The translations under genes were made by a program, and so were the position numbers. Under the pieces are notes generated by a model. The model did no database searches. It was not told the DNA's origin and saw nothing but the letters and a program-made list of their open reading frames with translations. 64,000 bases of DNA from contig OZ245033.1 of NCBI GenBank assembly GCA_965224025.1, positions 256,001 to 320,000 on the forward strand, given 5' to 3'. Source of the stretch: Candidatus Multivorans sp. (GTDB lineage: Bacteria; Acidobacteriota; Thermoanaerobaculia; Multivoradales; Multivoraceae). Positions 31,183 to 43,793 of the stretch are shown here, in pieces; position 1 is the first letter of the stretch; each line of letters starts with the position of its first letter.

Positions 31183-32847
31183 ATGATCTTCTACTTCGGC
31201 CCCTTCGTGCTGAAGCCGGAGCAGTACGGCCTTGAGGTCGCCGGAGAGCCCCGCCAGCTTCAGCCCAAGGTGTTCGAGCTGCTGACCTTCCTGGTCGCGA
31301 ACCGGGACCGGGTGGTGTCCAAGGAGGAGTTGCTCGGGAACATCTGGGACGGCGCCTACGTGACGGAGGCGGCGATCAGCCGGGCGGTCAGCGAGGCGCG
31401 CAAGGTCCTCGCCGACGGCGGCGGAAGCGCCGAGTGGATCACCACCGTGTACGGGCGCGGATTCCGCTTCACCGGCCCGGTGATCGAGGATCTGGCCGCG
31501 CCGGAAGGCGACCCTTCGGTCGCCGTGCCGCCGCCCGAAGAGGAACGGGGACTCTCGATCGCCGTCCTGCCGTTCGCCGACCGCAGCCCGCAGCGCGATC
31601 AGGCGCACCTCTGCGAAGGGATGGCCGAGGAGATCCTCCACCGGCTCGCGCACGTCGTCGGCCTGCGGGTCACGGCCCGCGGCGTGTCCTTCCAGTACGA
31701 CGCGCTGGCCGATCCCCGGGTAGTAGGGCGGCAGATCGGCGCCAACCTGGTGTTGGCGGGCACGGTCCGCAAGGACGGCGACGAACTCCGCATCGACGTC
31801 GAGGTGACGGACGCCCGCACCGGCATCCAGGTCTGGTCGGAGCAGTGGCAGCGGCATTCGCAGCAGATCTTCGCGCTGCAGGACGAGACCGCAACGCTGA
31901 TCGCCGAGACCCTGGAGCTGCGTCTGGCGCCGGACGCGGCGCGGCACGAGGCCCGGCGCACGGCGTCCAGCCAGGCCTACGACCTCTACCTGCGCGGCCG
32001 GAGTCTCTACCACCAGGCGCGCAAGAGGACTTACTACGAGGCGCGGCGGCTGTTCGCGGAGGCGATCGAGCTCGATCCGGCGTACGCCCTGGCTCACGCG
32101 GCGTCCGCGCACTGCTCCGCGTATCTCTACCTGTTCCACGAACCGAGCGAGGACAACCTCAGACTCGCCGACGAGTCGAGTTCGCGAGCCCTGGAGCTGG
32201 CGCCCGAGGTCGCGGAGGCGCACTCGGCGAGGGCGATGACACTCAGCACCAACGGCCGGCTGGAGGAGGCCGAAGTCCACTTCCGGCGCGCCTTGGAACT
32301 CGACCCGCTGAGCTTCGAGGCGAACCACAACTTTGCCCGTCACCGCTTCGCCCAGGGCCGGATGGAGGAAGCGGTCACGTTCTTCTTCCGGGCCATCGAA
32401 GCCGATCCGACGGCTTACGCCCCCTGCTCCATCTGCACCGCGGCTCTGGCGGCGCTCGGCCGGACTTCTGAAACGGCTCGGCTCCAGGAGCTCACGCAGG
32501 CCAGGGTGCAAAGGCGCCTGTTGCGCTACCCCGACGACCAGCGCGCGCTCTACCTGGGCGCGGTCAATCTCGCCCGCGACGGTCGGACGGACGAGGCCCT
32601 GGAGTGGGCCGCGCGGGCGGAGGCCCTGGATCCCCAGGATGCCGTGGCGCTCTACAACCTGGCCTGCGTGGCGGCCGTGTGCGGCGATGCGGATGCCGGG
32701 CTCCGGTACCTGGAATCGGCAGTGAGGCATGGTTACCCGCACCTGCGCTGGATCGAGAACGATGCCGACTTGGCGGCGCTGCGGGCGGATCCGCGGTTTG
32801 GGGAGGTGGTGGCGGGGCTGCGGGGGGCGGCGCGGGCTGCTGGCTGA
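31183..32847 (+). CDS. Winged-helix (OmpR/CadC-type) regulator with TolB-like and TPR domains
   Basis: LQPKVFELL..VVSKEELL..ITTVYGRGFRF; SIAVLPF; multiple TPRs; divergent from the TonB receptor. Confidence 0.88.
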   Translation: MIFYFGPFVLKPEQYGLEVAGEPRQLQPKVFELLTFLVANRDRVVSKEELLGNIWDGAYVTEAAISRAVSEARKVLADGGGSAEWITTVYGRGFRFTGPVIEDLAAPEGDPSVAVPPPEEERGLSIAVLPFADRSPQRDQAHLCEGMAEEILHRLAHVVGLRVTARGVSFQYDALADPRVVGRQIGANLVLAGTVRKDGDELRIDVEVTDARTGIQVWSEQWQRHSQQIFALQDETATLIAETLELRLAPDAARHEARRTASSQAYDLYLRGRSLYHQARKRTYYEARRLFAEAIELDPAYALAHAASAHCSAYLYLFHEPSEDNLRLADESSSRALELAPEVAEAHSARAMTLSTNGRLEEAEVHFRRALELDPLSFEANHNFARHRFAQGRMEEAVTFFFRAIEADPTAYAPCSICTAALAALGRTSETARLQELTQARVQRRLLRYPDDQRALYLGAVNLARDGRTDEALEWAARAEALDPQDAVALYNLACVAAVCGDADAGLRYLESAVRHGYPHLRWIENDADLAALRADPRFGEVVAGLRGAARAAG

Positions 32848-32880
32848 CTGTCGGTGCGCCGGCCACTGGATGCGCCGCCC

Positions 32881-33035
32881 ACTGGGCGCGCCGGCCTTCT
32901 GGCCGGCTGCCGCCGGAGGCGGCCAAGCGACAGCACCGGCCGCAGGCCGGTTCCATCCGGCAAACGGCCCCAACGAACTTCGGGCTCGCCGCTTCGCGGC
33001 ATCGCGCCCAATGCCGGCCAGAAGGCCGGCGCACC
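32881..33035. repeat. Inverted REP family B doublet (REPIN/BIME-like); right copy interrupted by IS110
   Basis: ACTGGGCGCGCCGGCCTTCTGGCCGGC ... GCCGGCCAGAAGGCCGGCGCACC; the remaining CAGTG resumes at 34746. Confidence 0.85.
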
Positions 33036-33245
33036 TGTACCTTTCTCGGGTGGATTCTGGTGGGTCGTTGAGAGAGGTGGAATCGACCAGTAGCCGTCGC
33101 GGCTGCGGTAGCTGTGGGAAACCGGCTTGCCGGTTTTCCAAGGTCCGGCGGGAAACGGTCTGCCGTTTTCCGCGGGACCGGCAGCTTCCGCAGCCGGGAC
33201 CGCCGGTCGGTTTCGTTTCCGGCCTGCCGGAGTCACTGAAGGAAG

Positions 33246-33400
33246 GTCGGCAAGCAGCCAGGAGCGACCACCGGCGCACTGTGCTTCGAGCACCTGGCTG
33301 GGACCCGTGCCCTGGCTGCTTCGCCGCGTTGGACGCCCAGTGGAGAGTCAGTGCCTTAGAGCACCAGTACAGGTACGGGCAGGCAACGCGGCATGCCGAC
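33246..33400 (+). ncRNA. IS110 bridge RNA core (target- and donor-binding loops), copy 1
   Basis: LTG CCGGCGCAC 33271, RTG CTGGG 33298, LDG GTGGAGAGTC 33340, RDG GTACAGG 33367; closing stems GCAGCCAGG/CCTGGCTGC, GCCGCGTTG/CAACGCGGC, GTCGGCA/TGCCGAC; transcript ends unknown. Confidence 0.85.
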
Positions 33401-33435
33401 CAGGCAACACTACCGCAAGGGAGAAGGAGGACGAG

Positions 33436-34689
33436 ATGACCAGGACGTGGTTCGTCGGCGTGGACTGGGGGTCCGAGACCCACCACGTGTGTGTGCTGGA
33501 TCGGGACGGCAAGGTGAGGGGGGAGCGGGCGTTCGACCACAGCGGCAAGGGACTTGCCGCCATGGCCGACTGGCTCCTTGGACATACCCGACCGACGTCT
33601 CCGGACGAGATCGGCGTCGCCATCGAGGTGCCGCACGGACCGGTGGTCGAGACTCTCCTGGAGCGGGGTTTCGCCGTCCATTCGATCAACCCCAAGCAGC
33701 TCGACCGCTTCAGGGACCGCTTCTCCGTCGCCGGCGCCAAGGATGACCGCCGCGATGCACGGGTGCTCGCCGCCGCGCTTCGCACCGACCCCGAGTGCCT
33801 GAACCGCGTGCAACCATCCGATGCCGCCATCGTCATGCTGCGCGAGGTGTCCCGCGCCCGCAAGCAGTTGGTCAACCAGAAGAACCGCCTGGAGAACCAG
33901 GTCCGCGACCAGCTCTGGCGCTACTACCCGCAGTTTCTCGCCGTGGTCAAGAACGAGGTGTCGGCGCCCTTCGCGCTGGCCTTGTGGCGACTGGCGCCGA
34001 CCCCCGGCAAGGCTCGACGGCTGCGCGAAGCCACGCTCGCCAAACTGCTCAAGGAACACCGCATCCGGCGCCTGACCTCCGCCCAACTGCGCGATCAACT
34101 GCGGGCCGAGCCGATCGCCGTTTCCCCGGACACCGTTAAGGCCGCCGTCGAACACATAGGACTCCTCCGGCCGGTGCTCGACACCGTCTGCCGCCAACTC
34201 GCCGACGCCGACAAGCGGCTGGAGCGGATGACCCGCGCACTCGAGGCCCCGGCCCAACGGGAAAACGACGACGACTCCCCTAAGCCGAGCGACGCCGCCA
34301 TCCTCAGGTCGCTGCCCGGACTCGGCAAGGTCGGCCTCGCCACCCTGCTCTCCGAGGCCGATCAAAGCCTGGGCCGCAGAGACCACGAGGCACTGCGTTG
34401 CCTCTGCGGAGTGGCGCCGGTGACCGTCAAGTCCGGCAAGAAGCTCATCGTCATGCGACGACTCGCCGCCAACGAACACCTCAGCGACGCCGTCTATCAC
34501 TGGGGACGAGTCGCCATCGAGCATGACCCGATCAGCCGCGCCAAGTACGACGCCATGAAAGCCCAGGGAAAGACGCACGGACGCGCCATCAGACAACTCG
34601 TCGACCGACTCCTCGGCGTCGCCTGCGCCATGCTCCGAGACCGAACTCTCTTCGACCCCAACAAGCGATGCCATGCCCAGGTCGCATGA
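33436..34689 (+). CDS. IS110 DEDD recombinase (417 aa)
   Basis: RBS AAGGAGG; GVDWG, AIE, KDDRRDA RuvC-like DEDD residues; SLPGLG, GVAPVTVKSG Tnp domain serine. Confidence 0.95.
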   Translation: MTRTWFVGVDWGSETHHVCVLDRDGKVRGERAFDHSGKGLAAMADWLLGHTRPTSPDEIGVAIEVPHGPVVETLLERGFAVHSINPKQLDRFRDRFSVAGAKDDRRDARVLAAALRTDPECLNRVQPSDAAIVMLREVSRARKQLVNQKNRLENQVRDQLWRYYPQFLAVVKNEVSAPFALALWRLAPTPGKARRLREATLAKLLKEHRIRRLTSAQLRDQLRAEPIAVSPDTVKAAVEHIGLLRPVLDTVCRQLADADKRLERMTRALEAPAQRENDDDSPKPSDAAILRSLPGLGKVGLATLLSEADQSLGRRDHEALRCLCGVAPVTVKSGKKLIVMRRLAANEHLSDAVYHWGRVAIEHDPISRAKYDAMKAQGKTHGRAIRQLVDRLLGVACAMLRDRTLFDPNKRCHAQVA

Positions 34690-34823
34690 CCTCCCTGACC
34701 CGCAGCAGCCTCCCCAAAACACACTTGCTAAAGGGTGGAGAGTCCCAGTGGGCGGAGCTTGCGCACCCTGCCTCGTCACAGGCACACTCACGCTTCACAC
34801 GAACAGCTCGGGGGGCGGAGCGG

Positions 34824-35603
34824 ATGCTGGAACTTGGACTTGAGGGCAGGGTGGCGATCGTCACCGGCGGCAGCGAGGGGATGGGGCTCGCGACGGCGCG
34901 CCGCCTCGTTGGCGAGGGCGCGCGCGTCGCGATCTGCGCGCGGCGGGCGGAGAACCTGGAGCGGGCCGCCGACGAGTTGCGCGCGGCGGGCGGCGGCGAG
35001 GTCTTCGCCCAGCCCGCCGACGTGACCTCCGCGGCCGACGTCGACCGCTTCATCGACGCGGTGACCGCCGAGTTCGGCGGCGTCGACATCCTCGTCAACA
35101 ACGCCGGCGCGTCGGCCGCGCAGGGCCTCGAATCGCTCGACGACGACGCCTGGCTCGCGGACATCCAGCTCAAGGTGATGGGTGCGGTGCGTTTCTGCCG
35201 GGGCGTCGTGCCCTCGATGCGCAAGCGCGGCGGCGGTTCGATCGTCAACGCGACGATCGGGGGCGGCAAGGCGGCGCCGGCGCGGGCGCTGCCGACCAGC
35301 GTCACCCGGGCCGCCGGCATCAACCTGACCAAGTCGCTCGCCAACGAACTGGCCGCCGACAACATCCGCGTCAACACGATCTGCATCGGCCTGATCAAGA
35401 GCGACCAGTGGGTGCGCCGGGCGACGGGCCAGGGCGTCGAGGTCGAGTCGATCTACGAGGCGATGGGCAAGCGCGTCCCCCTGGGCCGCGTCGGCGAGGC
35501 GGAGGAGTACGCCGACCTGATCGCGTTCCTGGTCTCGGAGCGCGGCGCCTACATCACCGGCGCGTCGATCAACCTGGACGGCGGGCTGTGTCCCGTCGTG
35601 TGA
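34824..35603 (+). CDS. SDR family oxidoreductase
   Basis: VTGGSEGMG, LVNNAG, NIRVN, YITGASINLDGG; lacks canonical YxxxK. Confidence 0.88.
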   Translation: MLELGLEGRVAIVTGGSEGMGLATARRLVGEGARVAICARRAENLERAADELRAAGGGEVFAQPADVTSAADVDRFIDAVTAEFGGVDILVNNAGASAAQGLESLDDDAWLADIQLKVMGAVRFCRGVVPSMRKRGGGSIVNATIGGGKAAPARALPTSVTRAAGINLTKSLANELAADNIRVNTICIGLIKSDQWVRRATGQGVEVESIYEAMGKRVPLGRVGEAEEYADLIAFLVSERGAYITGASINLDGGLCPVV

Positions 35604-40835: not shown

Positions 40836-41100
40836 GCGGCTGCCGCTGGTGCGGCGGCGCCCGGAATGCCGGCCAGAAGGCCGGCGCACCTGTACCTTTC
40901 CGGGATGCATTCTGGCGTGTCGTTGAGAGAGGTGGAATGGACCAGTAGCCGTCGTGGCTGCGGTAGCTGTGGGAAACCGGCTTGCCGGTTTTCCAAGGTC
41001 CGGCGGGAAACGGTCTGCCGTTTTCCGCCGGGCCGGCAGCTTCCGCAGCCGAGACCGCCGGTCGGTTGCGTCTCCGGCCTGCCGGAGTCACTGAAGGAAA

Positions 41101-41255
41101 GTCGGCAAGCAGCCAGGAGCAACCACCGGCGTACTGTGCTTCGAGCACCTGGCTGGGACCCGTGCCCTGGCTGCTTCGCCGCGTTGGACGCCCAGTGGAG
41201 AGTCAGTGCCTTAGAGCACCAGTACAGGTACGGGCAGGCAACGCGGCATGCCGAC
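41101..41255 (+). ncRNA. IS110 bridge RNA core, copy 2
   Basis: Same architecture as copy 1; LTG variant CCGGCGTAC at 41126-41134. Confidence 0.85.
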
Positions 41256-41290
41256 CAGGCAACACTACCGCAAGGGAGAAGGAGGACGAG

Positions 41291-42544
41291 ATGACCAGGA
41301 CGTGGTTCGTCGGCGTGGACTGGGGGTCCGAGACCCACCACGTGTGTGTGCTGGATCGGGACGGCAAGGTGAGGGGGGAGCGGGCGTTCGACCACAGCGG
41401 CAAGGGACTTGCCGCCATGGCCGACTGGCTCCTTGGACATACCCGACCGACGTCTCCGGACGAGATCGGCGTCGCCATCGAGGTGCCGCACGGACCGGTG
41501 GTCGAGACTCTCCTGGAGCGGGGCTTCGCCGTGCATTCGATCAACCCCAAGCAGCTCGACCGCTTCAGGGACCGCTTCTCCGTCGCCGGCGCCAAGGATG
41601 ACCGCCGCGATGCACGGGCGCTCGCCGCCGCGCTTCGCACCGACCCCGAGTGCCTGAACCGCGTGCAACCATCCGATGCAGCCATCGTGATGCTGCGCGA
41701 GGTGTCCCGCGGCCGCAAGCAGTTGGTCGGCCAGAAGAACCGCCTGGAGAACCAGGTCCGCGACCAGCTCTGGCGCTACTACCCGCAGTTTCTCGCCGTG
41801 GTCAAGAACGAGGTGTCGGCGCCCTTCGCGCTGGCCTTGTGGCGACTGGCGCCGACCCCCGACAAGGCTCGACGGCTGCGCGAAGACACGCTCGCCAAAC
41901 TGCTCAAGGAACACCGCATCCGGCGCCTGACTGCCGCCCAACTGCGCGATCAACTGCGGGCCGAGCCGATCGCCGTTTCCCCGGACACCGTTAAGGCCGC
42001 CGTCGAACACATAGGACTCCTCCGGCCGGTGCTCGACACCGTCTGCCGCCAACTCGCCGACGCCGAAAGGCGGCTGGAGCGGATGACCCGCGCACTCGAA
42101 GCCGACCTCTCCCGGGAAAACGACGACGACACGCCCAAGCCGAGCGACGCCGCCATCCTCAGGTCGCTGCCCGGACTCGGCAAGGTCGGCCTCGCCACCC
42201 TGCTCTCCGAGGCCGATCAAAGCCTGGGCCGCAGAGACTACGAGGCACTGCGTTGCCTCTGCGGAGTGGCGCCGGTGACCGTCAAGTCCGGCAAGAAGCT
42301 CATCGTCATGCGACGACTCGCCGCCAACGAACACCTCAGCGACGCCGTCTATCACTGGGGACGAGTCGCCATCCAGCACGACCCGATCAGCCGCGCCAAG
42401 TACGACGCCATGAAAGCCGAAGGCAAGACACACGGACGAGCCATCAGACAACTCGTCGATCGACTCCTCGGCGTCGCCTGCGCCATGCTCCGAGACCGCA
42501 CTCTCTTCGACCCCAACAAGAGAAGCCATGCCCAGGTCGCATGA
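41291..42544 (+). CDS. IS110 DEDD recombinase (417 aa)
   Basis: Near-identical to 33436-34689 with catalytic motifs intact. Confidence 0.95.
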   Translation: MTRTWFVGVDWGSETHHVCVLDRDGKVRGERAFDHSGKGLAAMADWLLGHTRPTSPDEIGVAIEVPHGPVVETLLERGFAVHSINPKQLDRFRDRFSVAGAKDDRRDARALAAALRTDPECLNRVQPSDAAIVMLREVSRGRKQLVGQKNRLENQVRDQLWRYYPQFLAVVKNEVSAPFALALWRLAPTPDKARRLREDTLAKLLKEHRIRRLTAAQLRDQLRAEPIAVSPDTVKAAVEHIGLLRPVLDTVCRQLADAERRLERMTRALEADLSRENDDDTPKPSDAAILRSLPGLGKVGLATLLSEADQSLGRRDYEALRCLCGVAPVTVKSGKKLIVMRRLAANEHLSDAVYHWGRVAIQHDPISRAKYDAMKAEGKTHGRAIRQLVDRLLGVACAMLRDRTLFDPNKRSHAQVA

Positions 42545-42605
42545 CCTCCCTGACCCGCAGCAGCCTCCCCAAAACACACTTGCTAAAGGGTGGAGAGTCC
42601 CAGTG

Positions 42606-42675
42606 CCGGAATGCCGGCCGGAAGGCCGGCGCACCCAGTGCCGGAATGCCGGCCGGAATGCCGGCGTACCCAGTG
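42606..42675 (+). repeat. Tandem 35-bp REP family B units (units 2 and 3 of a three-unit array)
   Basis: CCGGAATGCCGGCCGGAA(G/T)GCCGGCG(C/T)ACCCAGTG twice; unit 1 is 40861-40890 plus 42601-42605, split by IS110. Confidence 0.88.
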
Positions 42676-42677
42676 AT

Positions 42678-43793
42678 CTACCGCAGTTCGGCGGTCTTGT
42701 TGCGCTCGATCAGGTCGAAGTCGATCTCGACTCCGAGGCCCGGGGCCATCGGGGCGTGGACGTAGCCCTCTGAATCGACCTCGATGTCTTCGACGAGGCC
42801 GTACTTCTGCGCGGCCGCCGGCAGCAGGACCTCGAACCACTCGCAGTTGCGGATCGCGGCGCTGATGTGCAGGTGGGCGACGTTGTTCAGCGAGTTGCCG
42901 CCGTGGTGGATCTCGAAGTTCATCCCGAAGCCCTCGGCCAGGTGGGCCGCCTTGAGGCAGCCGGTGATGCCGCCCTTGAGCGCGACGTCGCCGCGCAGGT
43001 AGTCGGTCGCCTGGTTGTAGATCCACGGCGCGAACGAGTCGTACCAGGCGCCGGGGAACTCGGTCGCCATGATCGGAATGCGAAGCTGCTGGCGCAGCTT
43101 CGTGTAGTTGTAGATGTCCTGGTCGCCCAGGGGATCCTCGTACCACTCGAAGTCGAGATCCTCGATCAGCTTGCCGACCCGTAGCGCCGAGGGGTAGTCG
43201 TAGCCCCAGGTCGAATCGAGCATCAACGGGAAACCGTCGCCGACCGCCTCGCGGACGGCCTTGCAGATCCGCATGTCGTCCCGCCAGACGCGGAACGGGT
43301 GGATCTTGTAGCCCTGCCAGCCCGCGGCCTGGTACGACTTGGCCTGCTCGACGTAGGCCTCGACATCAGGCTGCTGCTCGGAGCTGGCGTACGCGGGCAG
43401 CTTCTCCCGGTACGTCCCGAGCAGCCGGTGAACAGGCTCCCCCGCCGCCTTGCCGGCGATGTCCCAGAGCGCCACGTCGACGGCGCCGACCACCCAGGGC
43501 TGGACGACCAGCCGCCGCTCCAGCATCTCCTGGTAGAGCTGCTCACGGGCCAGCGGGTCGCGGCCCATCACGATCGGTTTGAGCATCCGCAGCAGGGTCC
43601 GTGCGGTCATGCTCGTCCCCATGCCGAGGAACGAATGGCCCTCGACTCCGTCGTCGGTACGGATCGTCACCAGGCCGAGTTCGCCTGTGCGGTTCGGCTG
43701 GCCGGCCGGGTCGAACGGCCCGCGTCCCAGGTAGGAGTGCGGCGGAATGTCGTTCCAGGCGAAGAGGGTGATGCTGAGGTCGTCGATCTTCAT
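42678..43793 (-). CDS. Mandelate racemase/muconate lactonizing enzyme family protein
   Basis: MKIDDL, AVDVALWDIAGK, YKIH, LMLD, WYEDP, ATE, PGLGVEID. Confidence 0.9.
   Translation of the reverse strand: MKIDDLSITLFAWNDIPPHSYLGRGPFDPAGQPNRTGELGLVTIRTDDGVEGHSFLGMGTSMTARTLLRMLKPIVMGRDPLAREQLYQEMLERRLVVQPWVVGAVDVALWDIAGKAAGEPVHRLLGTYREKLPAYASSEQQPDVEAYVEQAKSYQAAGWQGYKIHPFRVWRDDMRICKAVREAVGDGFPLMLDSTWGYDYPSALRVGKLIEDLDFEWYEDPLGDQDIYNYTKLRQQLRIPIMATEFPGAWYDSFAPWIYNQATDYLRGDVALKGGITGCLKAAHLAEGFGMNFEIHHGGNSLNNVAHLHISAAIRNCEWFEVLLPAAAQKYGLVEDIEVDSEGYVHAPMAPGLGVEIDFDLIERNKTAELR

Follow-up and report, generated by a model that had tools for sequence, protein, structure and literature searches.

A probable bridge-RNA-guided insertion sequence of the IS110 group at REP-like repeats of an acidobacterial genome

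The element and its surroundings

The window, by which we mean the whole 64,000-nucleotide stretch of DNA analyzed, contains two copies of an insertion sequence. The first (copy 1) is 1708 bp long and consists of a left end of 400 nt, a recombinase coding region, and a right end of 54 nt. It is flanked by a CC dinucleotide at 33034-33035 that is repeated at 34744-34745, and copy 2 is likewise flanked by CC at 40889-40890 and 42599-42600. The features located at the two copies are as follows.

33013-33030 (+): GC-rich, REP-like hairpin GCCGGCC-AGAA-GGCCGGC, immediately 5' of where the element inserted, with its 3' arm reaching into the left target
33024-33035 (+): left target GGCCGGCGCA and left CC core (33034-33035), seen in 14 of 14 copies
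33036-34743 (+): insertion sequence, copy 1
33048-33237 (+): expanded 5' stem-loop, a long hairpin conserved in eight of eight left ends of the Thermoanaerobaculia lineage, with 14 compensatory pairs
About 33101-33195 (+): Y-shaped module, about 95 nt and nearly invariant, with two hairpins of the form GGGAAACCGG-loop-CCGGTTTTCC
33246-33400 (+): putative bridge RNA core (target and donor stem-loops), at the same distance from the coding region in 79 of 80 related loci
33271-33280 (+): left target guide CCGGCGCAC(U), of which CCGGCGCAC is 33271-33279
33281-33293 (+): target-loop inner hairpin GTGCT-TCG-AGCAC (helix 3)
33297-33304 (+): right target guide GCUGGG, reverse complement of CC-CAGC, then handshake guide AC, facing GT at donor positions 6-7
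33340-33349 (+): left donor guide GTGGAGAGTC (as RNA, GUGGAGAGUC), identical to the final 9 nt of the right end and, after them, the first core C
33351-33364 (+): donor-loop inner hairpin GTGC-CTTAGA-GCAC (helix 6), with a compensatory change in seven sequences
33367-33375 (+): right donor guide GUACAGG (GTACAGG, 33367-33373), reverse complement of CC-TGTAC, then handshake guide UA
33436-34689 (+): recombinase gene, 417 aa plus stop, with DEDD RuvC-like and Tnp domains (D10, E64, D104, D107, S333)
34725-34743 (+): right-end terminus, with a -35-like TTGCTA (34725-34730) of probable promoter function and the left-donor sequence GGTGGAGAGT
34744-34751 (+): right CC core (34744-34745), seen in 14 of 14 copies, and right target CAGTGG, of which CAGT is read in the vacant site of a relative
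40891-42598 (+): IS110-group insertion sequence, copy 2, about 97% identical to copy 1
41291-42544 (+): recombinase gene of copy 2, intact, 417 aa
42624-42674 (+): two vacant targets in tandem REP units to the right of copy 2 (cores 42634-42635 and 42669-42670)

Both copies share the left flank GGCCGGCGCA-CC and the right flank CC-CAGTG. An earlier note on this DNA had placed them at one common site, and reading both pairs of junctions confirms this. Reasoning from these two copies, only one register of the core is compatible with all four junction sequences. Both sites are apparently intergenic. By our own reading copy 2 directly follows an in-frame stop, and copy 1 has a conserved left gene on one side and a conserved right flank common to relatives on the other.

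Copies and target sites across the genome

The genome contains 14 near-full copies of the element, and every one lies at GCCGGCG[C/T]A-CC-C[A/G]G[T/C], flanked left and right by the CC core that had been proposed from the window alone. The earlier note had asked for a survey of the genomic copies and held that copies at unrelated sites would speak against it; all 14 near-full copies share one site. When all junctions in the genome are counted, this site is found at 17 of 18 on the left and 15 of 17 on the right. One further copy is identical to copy 1, two others are at least 99.9% identical, and nine of the 12 full-length copies reach at least 99%. An uninterrupted 417-aa match with all catalytic residues is found in ten of the 14 copies and is missing in four, and two have deletions in the left end. 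The guides and stems described below are intact in all 12 copies aligned.

The target is itself repeated. We identified 43 vacant copies (pattern CCGGCG[CT]ACCCAG[CT]; 5.14 Mb), each with a single CC, which together with the 17 occupied left junctions bring the genome total to about 60. The two vacant sites beside copy 2 read GGCCGGCGCA-CC-CAGT (core 42634-42635) and GCCGGCGTA-CC-CAGT (core 42669-42670), and the site consensus includes a second palindrome upstream. These vacant and occupied copies of a repeated GC-rich hairpin support the proposal that insertion is directed at a host REP-like palindrome. The 3' flank of the REP-like hairpin is the probable programmed target. We considered whether the hairpin is a requirement for insertion, and rejected this: a 5-7 bp GC-rich hairpin ending 3-5 nt before the core was identified beside 12 of the 14 occupied sites and beside 30 of the 43 vacant ones, which is no clear difference.

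The element has no match at the orthologous locus in five relatives, and one relative retains a vacant orthologous site (...GGCGCA-CC-CAGT...) that is uninterrupted and contains a single CC. Relatives that have about 88% DNA identity lack an insertion at this site, so the window copy arrived after that divergence.

The recombinase

The predicted protein matches PF01548 over residues 7-165 (120 bits, cut-off 29), PF02371 over residues 288-371 (47.5 bits, cut-off 21.3), and the equivalog model NF033542.1, 'IS110 family RNA-guided transposase' (177.2 bits, cut-off 140). Residues D10, E64, D104 and D107 align with residues 13, 62, 104 and 107 of the IS621 chain 8wt6_A. Given two extra N-terminal residues, as a constant offset suggests, these positions would be native D11, E60, D102 and D105. 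S333 aligns with S243 of the chain, which is native S241 of IS621. The catalytic residues of IS621 have been named from its structure as DEDD and Ser (PMC11208160 / PMC11208158). The IS621 protein is only distantly similar, with two matching stretches (E = 7.6e-12), and for this reason the mechanism may differ in detail. The Tnp domain is also matched by the solved chain of ISCro4 / IS622, 9t56_A (E = 4.3e-10). The protein had been described as larger than that of IS621. This is true, as the solved IS621 chain has 328 residues, but 417 aa still falls within the reported family range of 300-460 aa (PMC11208160 / PMC11208158).

In the IS110 group the left end is reported to exceed the right end in length and to encode the RNA, while the IS1111 group carries its RNA in the right end (PMC11208160 / PMC11208158). 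Here the longer non-coding end is the left one (400 vs 54 nt), and the structured RNA sits within it, at 33246-33400. Both domains, the whole-protein model and the catalytic residues together assign the element, on sequence grounds, to the IS110 family and its IS110 group.

Guides of the putative bridge RNA

The left end as a whole folds with a z-score of -8.9. In a single-sequence fold the core is closed by pairing of GUCGGCA (33246-33252) with UGCCGAC (33394-33400). In bridge RNAs the 5' sides of the loops are reported to pair with the bottom strand over 8-9 nt and the 3' sides with the top strand over 4-7 nt (PMC11208160), with the core dinucleotide contained in all four guides (PMC11208160 / PMC11208158). 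The left target guide is identical to the left target as read on the top strand and continues through the first core C, and its final U faces the second core position, where it would form a G-U wobble with the bottom strand. The four guides match over 9, 5-6, 10 and 7 nt. Taken singly, these matches are reached in 90, 1561, 14 and 119 of 2000 dinucleotide-preserving shuffles of the left end, and jointly in none of the 2000.

The guide matches that the earlier note had read around both inner hairpins are present in both loops, with some corrections. The right target guide had been given as CTGGG (33298-33302), and this stretch is there, but the guide is really the 6-nt GCUGGG, which is perfect against CAGC and has a G-T wobble against CAGT. 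Closing stems of 7-9 bp had also been described. The stem that closes the target loop is 12 bp long, and the one that closes the donor loop has 9 bp when the single sequence is folded, or 5+3 pairs if conserved ones are counted.

Both right guides carry GG, and the left guides carry CU (target) and CA (donor), so the left guides can form a Watson-Crick pair with the first core base only. The second core position of the left guides is C, U, G or A among relatives. In IS621, pairing to both core strands is reported to be strongly preferred (PMC11208160 / PMC11208158).

Handshake guides are reported to pair at positions 6-7 with the non-cognate DNA, while the cognate DNA is left unpaired there (PMC11208160 / PMC11208158; 10.1101/2025.05.14.653916). 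Target and donor differ at positions 6-7, as this rule needs. The target-loop handshake is AC in 74 loci and AU in four, and the donor GT is invariant. The donor-loop handshake UA faces CA or TA in the target: its U is opposite position 7 (A), and its A finds a partner at position 6 in the GCGTA variant of the site alone. Across relatives a Watson-Crick pair between the donor-loop handshake and the target is formed at position 7 in 77 of 78 loci (as A-U, C-G or G-C) and at position 6 in 37 of 78. Judged from these bases, both handshake dinucleotides fit the IS621 rule.

Position 33277 is variable (C or U) among copies in the genome, and copy 2 carries U. Copies with U or C are not cleanly sorted onto GCGTA and GCGCA sites, and GCGTA sites are occupied by two copies whose left guide has C. 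No rule linking each copy in cis to its own site can therefore be claimed, and RNA acting in trans may explain the mismatch of single copies with their sites. The site variant that best fits the guides, GTA-CC-CAGC, is occupied in four of five instances and the other variants in ten of 62 (Fisher p = 0.006, in a post-hoc test).

Conservation and covariation among relatives

We compared the element with relatives from Acidobacteriota and Alphaproteobacteria, comprising loci L001-L080 (57-93% protein identity) and plasmid hits H1-H13 (45-55%), and read the guides across loci off the alignment columns. Like the element, these relatives have a CC core, donor ends of the form GGTGG[A/G][A/G]AGT-CC-TGTAC, and the RNA scaffold at an equal distance from the gene in nearly every locus. 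They differ in their targets, and the relatives in Vicinamibacterales and Azospirillum have left ends of 230-240 nt without the expanded 5' stem-loop.

In a structure alignment of 24 distinct sequences, 99.1% of cells are paired and 11 of 31 pairs show compensatory changes. On four of five measures none of 500 shuffled controls reaches the observed values; on the remaining one, the count of further pair types, 13 of them do. In slid controls 26-44% of cells are paired.

The guides change together with the flanks. At least 14 distinct target families occur among the relatives. The left guide has on average 8.4 nt in common with its own left flank compared with 3.7 nt for the flanks of other families, and the right guide has 3.4 contiguous nt in common with its own right flank compared with 0.65 for other families. 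The observed guide-flank total is reached in none of 20000 permutations over 14 distinct target families. [quoted passage not shown] This natural covariation of guides with flanks supports the proposed programmability of the system. The element had been put forward as a new programmable recombinase orthologue. It is an uncharacterised orthologue among relatives in which guides covary with flanks, but the class of protein is already named as RNA-guided in NCBIfam.

The expanded 5' stem-loop

In the lineage of the element the 5' stem-loop, originally about 25 nt long, has gained about 165 nt and now measures about 190 nt, and because of this the bridge RNA core begins about 210 nt into the left end. 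The same Y-shaped module also occurs in a repeated unit, about 50 nt from one of its ends, and in the one locus examined this unit borders an IS21-like element. We suggest, tentatively and as the less likely reading of its conservation, that the module serves the bridge RNA or the left-end DNA as a functional accessory domain. Such a domain, which would be common to two unrelated IS families, could be a platform for a host factor or a second transposase, or could switch the output of guide RNA.

Promoter elements and database searches

All 20 lineages listed have CTTGC[A/T]A or TTGAC[A/T] at a distance of 13 nt ahead of the core. On its other side, starting 3 nt beyond it, 18 of them have TACC[T/C]T and the other two TACATT and TACCGT. 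By our own count TACCTT agrees with TATAAT at three of six positions. A consensus promoter scan identified no sigma-70-like site in the integrated element. Rfam gave no match at gathering score anywhere in the window, and a search restricted to 32950-33500 returned only chance-level matches (E 0.75-6.9), all far under their cut-offs. Contigs of four sequencing runs over 32800-35000 contain neither a circle joint nor a precise skip from 33035 to 34746. They do contain short skips of low support and numerous loose ends, which are to be expected where short-read assemblies break at a multi-copy repeat, and are uninformative on excision. No RNA sequencing run was listed as containing this DNA, a result equally uninformative on expression.

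Proposed mechanism and alternatives

Taken together, the genomic context and the conserved structure make it very probable that the element is an autonomous insertion sequence of the IS110 group and that a bridge RNA guides the recombination by which it moves. Transcription of the 400-nt left end would yield an RNA in which a 5' stem-loop is followed by one stem-loop that binds the target and another that binds the donor. The left guides would pair with the bottom strand and the right guides with the top strand, and in the donor loop GUGGAGAGUC and GUACAGG would pair with the joined right and left ends of the excised circle. The DEDD and serine recombinase would exchange strands around the common CC core, and the handshakes AC and UA would pair with their non-cognate partners once the top strands are exchanged. 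A promoter would be rebuilt at the circle junction, with the -35 element from the right end and TACCTT from the left end. RNA-protein binding and chemistry are proposed here by homology with IS621.

It is improbable, in our view, that the family assignment is right but the lineage consists of immobile relics whose left-end RNA is unmade or unused. The four copies of 14 without an uninterrupted 417-aa match, the two left-end deletions, and the lack of a promoter-like site in the consensus scan of the integrated copy would all fit such relics. However, immobile relics would hardly include near-identical copies (one identical to copy 1 and nine of 12 full-length copies at 99% or above), ten of 14 copies with the whole frame and all catalytic residues, and guides and stems intact in 12 of 12 aligned copies. 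The vacancy of the orthologous site in relatives at about 88% DNA identity likewise points away from them.

Another possibility is that the protein alone or the REP hairpin chooses the site, and that the matches in the left end are leftover subterminal repeats or captured REP sequence. The 9-mer of the left target is indeed GC-rich and REP-like, and 90 of 2000 shuffles produce a match of its length. Of the 14 occupied sites, 12 have a GC-rich hairpin in front of them, and the target stem-loop of ISPpu10 is reported to add specificity (10.64898/2026.03.19.712850). We nevertheless regard this as very improbable. The guides shift with the flanks in 14 target families of unlike sequence, and the matches always fall in internal loops of a structure with compensatory changes. 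The hairpin is not clearly more frequent at occupied sites (12 of 14) than at vacant ones (30 of 43). Furthermore, the handshake bases covary with the non-cognate partner, which captured repeats do not explain. A contribution of the hairpin on top of RNA guidance is compatible with bridge-RNA-guided recombination, which we continue to favor.

Relation to known systems

This type of RNA-guided recombinase was first described in 2024 for IS621 of Escherichia coli and its bridge RNA (PMC11208160, PMC11208158). The earlier note's comparison with the IS621 architecture holds in detail, down to the recombinase, the order of the loops, the guide strands and the presence of a core, here CC, and the handshakes fit as well. 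As reported for IS621, the element combines a DEDD RuvC-like and Tnp(Ser) recombinase with a predicted RNA in the long left end that has a 5' stem-loop, a target loop and a donor loop in that order. In both, left guides address the bottom strand and right guides the top strand, donor and target have a 2-nt core in common, a handshake guide lies 3' of each right guide, and a -35-like box in the right end faces the left end over the junction. The differences concern the core (CC in place of the CT reported for IS621), the REP family that is targeted, the length of the protein, and the left guides, which form a Watson-Crick pair with the first core base only. The right target guide of the element spans four non-core bases (up to seven in relatives), and its 5' stem-loop is expanded, which displaces the bridge RNA core.

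ISCro4 / IS622 is also a bridge recombinase with the same guide and handshake logic; it is a close relative of IS621 with CT or GT cores and has been reported as tested in human cells (10.1101/2025.05.14.653916). The REP-like targets have parallels elsewhere in the family. ISPpu9 of Pseudomonas putida is an IS110-family element that reportedly inserts into repeated intergenic palindromic sequences. ISPpu10, an IS110-family element of the same species, is described as targeting repeated intergenic palindromes, with a GC-rich stem-loop 5' of the paired bases (10.64898/2026.03.19.712850), the position that the hairpin at 33013-33030 also has. Both differ from the element described here in host and target sequence, and the likeness is one of description only.

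The element is a clear and well-defined example of an RNA-guided recombinase whose type is already known. Durrant et al. report predicted bridge RNAs for IS110 elements in the thousands (PMC11208160), and because most elements of the family have such a prediction this one will not surprise a specialist. Among the papers listed for IS110 and bridge RNAs, titles and abstracts yielded nothing on Acidobacteriota, and those listed for IS110 together with the host lineage and related taxa do not contain the term IS110. Its distinctive points are the CC core, the weak pairing of the left guides at the second core position, and the expanded 5' stem-loop with its conserved module.

All parts for a bench test of a bridge recombinase are set out by the sequence: the recombinase, the scaffold, four guides, the handshakes, the donor junction, the core and the target. 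Unlike the characterised enzymes, IS621 and IS622, which work on CT or GT, it has a CC core, and it comes from a high-GC acidobacterial host. If active, it could broaden the range of addressable sequences. The clade has been retargeted naturally to at least 14 sites on one scaffold, which is natural evidence for freely exchangeable loops. Within this genome, the element explains why the REP-like repeats carry scattered copies of one insertion sequence.

An IS110-group element at a common CC site

We identified a 1708-bp unit at 33036–34743 of the window that is repeated at 40891–42598. The host genome (5.14 Mb, 67.6% G+C; window at C1:256001–320000) contains 12 full-length copies as identified by BLAST, two more with a left-end deletion, and several fragments. 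The left flank is GCCGGCG[C/T]A-CC in all 14 near-full copies, and the right flank is CC-CAGT in nine, CC-CAGC in four and CC-CGGT in one. The flanks thus fit in 14/14 near-full copies, confirming the earlier note's description of a two-copy IS110 element at a common CC site. A survey of genomic copies for the common target, proposed in that note, is also favorable, as 17 of 18 left and 15 of 17 right junctions genome-wide fit the target site. Comparing the two junctions with an uninterrupted site (42624–42639) and the element ends leaves a single workable register, with target ...GCGCA-CC-CAGT... and donor ...GGAGAGT-CC-TGTACC... (the right end joined to the left end). CC is present on either side of the inserted element.

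The flanks of copy 1 (a gene to the left, sequence to the right) are 87–89% identical in five same-genus relatives, where they lie only 70–120 nt apart with no match to the element between them. One relative carries ...GTCGGCGCA-CC-CAGTAGAGGAGCTTGCGCACCCTGCC..., in which the left and right flanks of copy 1 in the window meet across one CC. The locus without the element in these relatives is independent proof of the element boundaries.

The recombinase

The ORF at 33436–34689 encodes a 417-aa protein with domains PF01548 (DEDD_Tnp_IS110) and PF02371. The protein scores above the cut-off of NCBIfam NF033542, 'IS110 family RNA-guided transposase' (177.2 bits vs 140), and matches the solved structures of IS621 (8wt6_A, E = 7.6e-12), from which it is nevertheless distant, and ISCro4 (9t56_A, E = 4.3e-10). 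In the printed alignment D10, E64, D104, D107 and S333 align to IS621 D11, E60, D102, D105 and S241, assuming a constant +2 offset in chain numbering that was itself inferred. These IS621 residues are described as its composite active site (Hiraizumi et al., PMC11208158). The match to the 417-aa protein is intact in 10 of 14 copies, covers only residues 1–409 in three, and is split in one. A search of the genome at E ≤ 1e-5 gave no additional, more divergent IS110 paralogue.

The predicted bridge RNA and its guides

The non-coding ends are 400 nt (left) and 54 nt (right), and a left end longer than the right is the pattern described for the IS110 group (PMC11208160). The fold of 33225–33400 consists of a 7-bp closing helix around two stem-loops with large internal loops, which contain the following features.

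Features of the target and donor loops (window coordinates)
33271–33279, +, left target guide CCGGCGCAC; identical to the left-target top strand extended by the first core C, with U next
33281–33293, +, target-loop inner hairpin, from the fold
33297–33302, +, right target guide GCUGGG; reverse complement of CC-CAGC
33340–33349, +, left donor guide GUGGAGAGUC; identical to the right end extended by the first core C
33367–33373, +, right donor guide GUACAGG; reverse complement of CC-TGTAC

The guides follow the strand rule given for IS621, the 5' sides of the loops pairing with the bottom strand and the 3' sides with the top strand (PMC11208160). When the left end was shuffled 2000 times with dinucleotides preserved, no shuffle gave the four guide matches jointly; on its own, the match of the GC-rich 9-mer guide is not rare (90/2000).

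The handshake guides are a detail unused in the earlier note. In IS621 each right guide is reportedly followed on its 3' side by a two-base handshake guide, which pairs with positions 6–7 of the other DNA after top-strand exchange and has to avoid pairing with its own DNA (PMC11208158; 10.1101/2025.05.14.653916). The target-loop handshake AC is complementary to GT at donor positions 6–7. In the donor-loop handshake UA, the U is opposite target position 7 (A), and pairing of the A with position 6 is limited to the GCGTA variant. The handshake positions of target (CA or TA) and donor (GT) differ, matching the IS621 requirement.

Position 33277 in the left target guide is polymorphic (C in nine copies, U in five), as is the target base opposite it (GCGCA or GCGTA), and U is able to pair with both. 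T at 33277 also occurs in contigs of three public sequencing runs. An orphan fragment on the contig containing the window (C1:4322367–4322573) consists of element positions 158–365 only, a bridge RNA that lacks both the element ends and the gene. It shares its right target guide with the copies in a sister genome, and its right donor guide is altered at one base.

The REP-like target

The genome contains 43 unoccupied CCGGCG[CT]ACCCAG[CT] sites. Their consensus context has, in order, a short palindrome, GCCGGC[G/C]-4 nt-[C/G]GCCGGC, and GCA-CC-CAGT, which places the insertion point 3 nt past a GC-rich hairpin whose 3' arm forms part of the left target. A hairpin of this kind is found at 12/14 occupied and 30/43 vacant sites. 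Vacant sites are present 35 and 70 bp to the right of copy 2. The variant that best fits the guides, GTA-CC-CAGC, is perfect for the right guide and both donor-loop handshake bases. It is occupied in 4/5 cases, compared with 10/62 for other variants (Fisher p = 0.006, a comparison chosen post hoc).

REP-like units are clustered in both orientations beside both copies (32850–33035, 42600–42680), and after copy 2 come two in tandem, each with a vacant target. At the site orthologous to that of copy 1 in one relative (locus L086 of G002, ~2620–2645), the 5' arm of the REP hairpin is fused to TGGTGGGGAGT-CC-CAGT. Of a related element only the tip of the right end is left here, apparently as a deletion remnant.

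Relatives and covariation

A one-genome-per-species scan identified 80 related loci.

Protein identity of relatives
Candidatus Multivorans MAGs, 72–93%
Thermoanaerobaculia, 66%
Vicinamibacterales, about 57–59%
one Azospirillum, 58%

In 79/80 loci the bridge-RNA region can be identified from its sequence, at a constant distance from the start codon; it comprises 30 distinct sequences, window included. We aligned 24 of these, omitting near-duplicates (L004, L036, L051, L056) and loci with diverged target loops (L047, L076). Both basal stems and both inner hairpins reappear in the RNAalifold consensus. With two pairs falling inside the right target guide removed, 99.1% of cells are paired, compared with 26–44% in slid-register controls, and 11 of 31 pairs show compensatory changes. 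The observed values on four of five measures were reached by none of 500 shuffles, and the further-pair-type count by 13/500.

The donor loop and element ends are near-constant across relatives (GGTGG[A/G][A/G]AGT-CC-TGTAC), and the target loop is variable, changing together with the flanks. Guides GGGGUC-CC and AAAAGG accompany flanks ...GGGGTC-CC and CC-TTTT, GCGAUC-CC and AAAUGG accompany ...GCGATC-CC and CC-ATTT, and GUGGACG-C and GGGGAGG accompany ...GTGGACG-CC and CC-TCCCC. Both flanks are available for 22 of 26 guide classes, which reduce to 14 distinct target families. Across these the mean left-guide match is 8.4 nt for cognate and 3.7 for non-cognate flanks, and the mean right-guide match 3.4 and 0.65, with 0/20000 label permutations giving a sum as high as observed. 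The right side scores 0 in three families: L075, in which another left end lies directly 3' of its right end, and L022 and L074, in which the right flanks simply mismatch the guide. In 77/78 loci target position 7 forms a Watson-Crick pair (A-U, C-G, G-C) with the donor-loop handshake base; the remaining locus has a G-T wobble. The four guide matches, stem covariation and guide-flank covariation together support the IS621-type bridge-RNA architecture proposed from the window alone.

Several relatives are unusual. About 1.2–1.6 kb past the start codon, L075 (Azospirillum canadense) has a right end followed immediately by CC and TGTACC, the start of a left end. Two readings fit: a tandem or nested copy, or a junction-like arrangement that became fixed in the chromosome. 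In Vicinamibacterales the matching right end is about 3550 nt past the start codon in L033, L036, L039, L041 and L051 and about 2300 nt in L055. These right ends (GGTGGGGAGT-CC, then the predicted right target) lie about 1–2.3 kb past the stop codon, and the elements seem to contain extra DNA between gene and right end. Expanded IS110 elements have reportedly been described in a 2026 preprint. L047 and L076, also Vicinamibacterales, retain the gene, and their target-loop region has diverged or been replaced; in L076 the donor loop pattern is missing as well. Both may be decaying copies or rearrangement products.

An expanded 5' stem-loop

In contrast to characterised systems, about 210 nt of the left end precede the bridge-RNA core. 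The 5' stem-loop is a plain one of 7–8 bp in relatives whose left ends measure 230–240 nt, and all eight Thermoanaerobaculia-lineage left ends examined have a ~190 nt hairpin enclosing a nearly invariant Y-shaped module. The whole left end has a fold z of -8.9. Two copies (C1:598851–600478 and C1:3853427–3855042) lack ~80–90 nt of the stem-loop (positions about 60–139); both retain the guide loops and are located at the usual target.

The Y-shaped double-hairpin module (window 33088–33211) also occurs outside the element at 87–91% identity, each time preceded by another conserved stretch of ~60 nt.

Modules outside the element (loci L081, L082)
C1:2474161–2474283
C1:3672584–3672706
C1:4048787–4048909
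C1:1301954–1302035
C1:3408859–3408901

In L081 the module is just past an IstB-like gene (PF01695) adjoining an rve-domain gene below the Pfam cut-off (31.6 vs 32.6 bits), a position at one terminus of an IS21-like element. A scan of three ORFs in L082 gave no IstB-like or rve-type gene. The expanded stem-loop with its shared module is the sole feature of the element left unplaced.

Proposed mechanism and comparison with known systems

By homology with IS621, the element would excise as a circle with the right end joined to the left end across CC. A -35-like hexamer 13 nt 5' of the core in the right end is conserved in 20/20 lineages printed (TTGCTA here; TTGCAA, TTGACA, TTGACT or TTGCCA in relatives), and TACCTT lies in the left end, 17 nt beyond it by our own count. 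The same arrangement across the junction is described for IS621 (PMC11208160). A transcript starting at the junction would run through the 5' stem-loop and both guide loops before reaching the ribosome-binding site and the gene. Together with this RNA, the recombinase would form a complex that base-pairs with the REP flank and the junction, with strand exchange at CC. We infer this transcription, binding and chemistry from the homology. A look for RNA sequencing runs that contain the stretch gave none.

The core is CC here and CT in IS621. IS621 is reported to prefer pairing to both core strands (PMC11208160); however, neither left guide here is Watson-Crick with the second core base, and in relatives this position of the left guides is C, U, G or A. 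The element was previously proposed to encode a new recombinase orthologue. It is indeed uncharacterised, but it is a typical IS110-group member with a fully readable bridge RNA. Bridge-RNA predictions are reported to cover 85.7% of catalogued IS110 elements, along with thousands of orthologues (PMC11208160). As such RNAs are already widely predicted and the protein class is already named by NCBI, the find is more useful than surprising.
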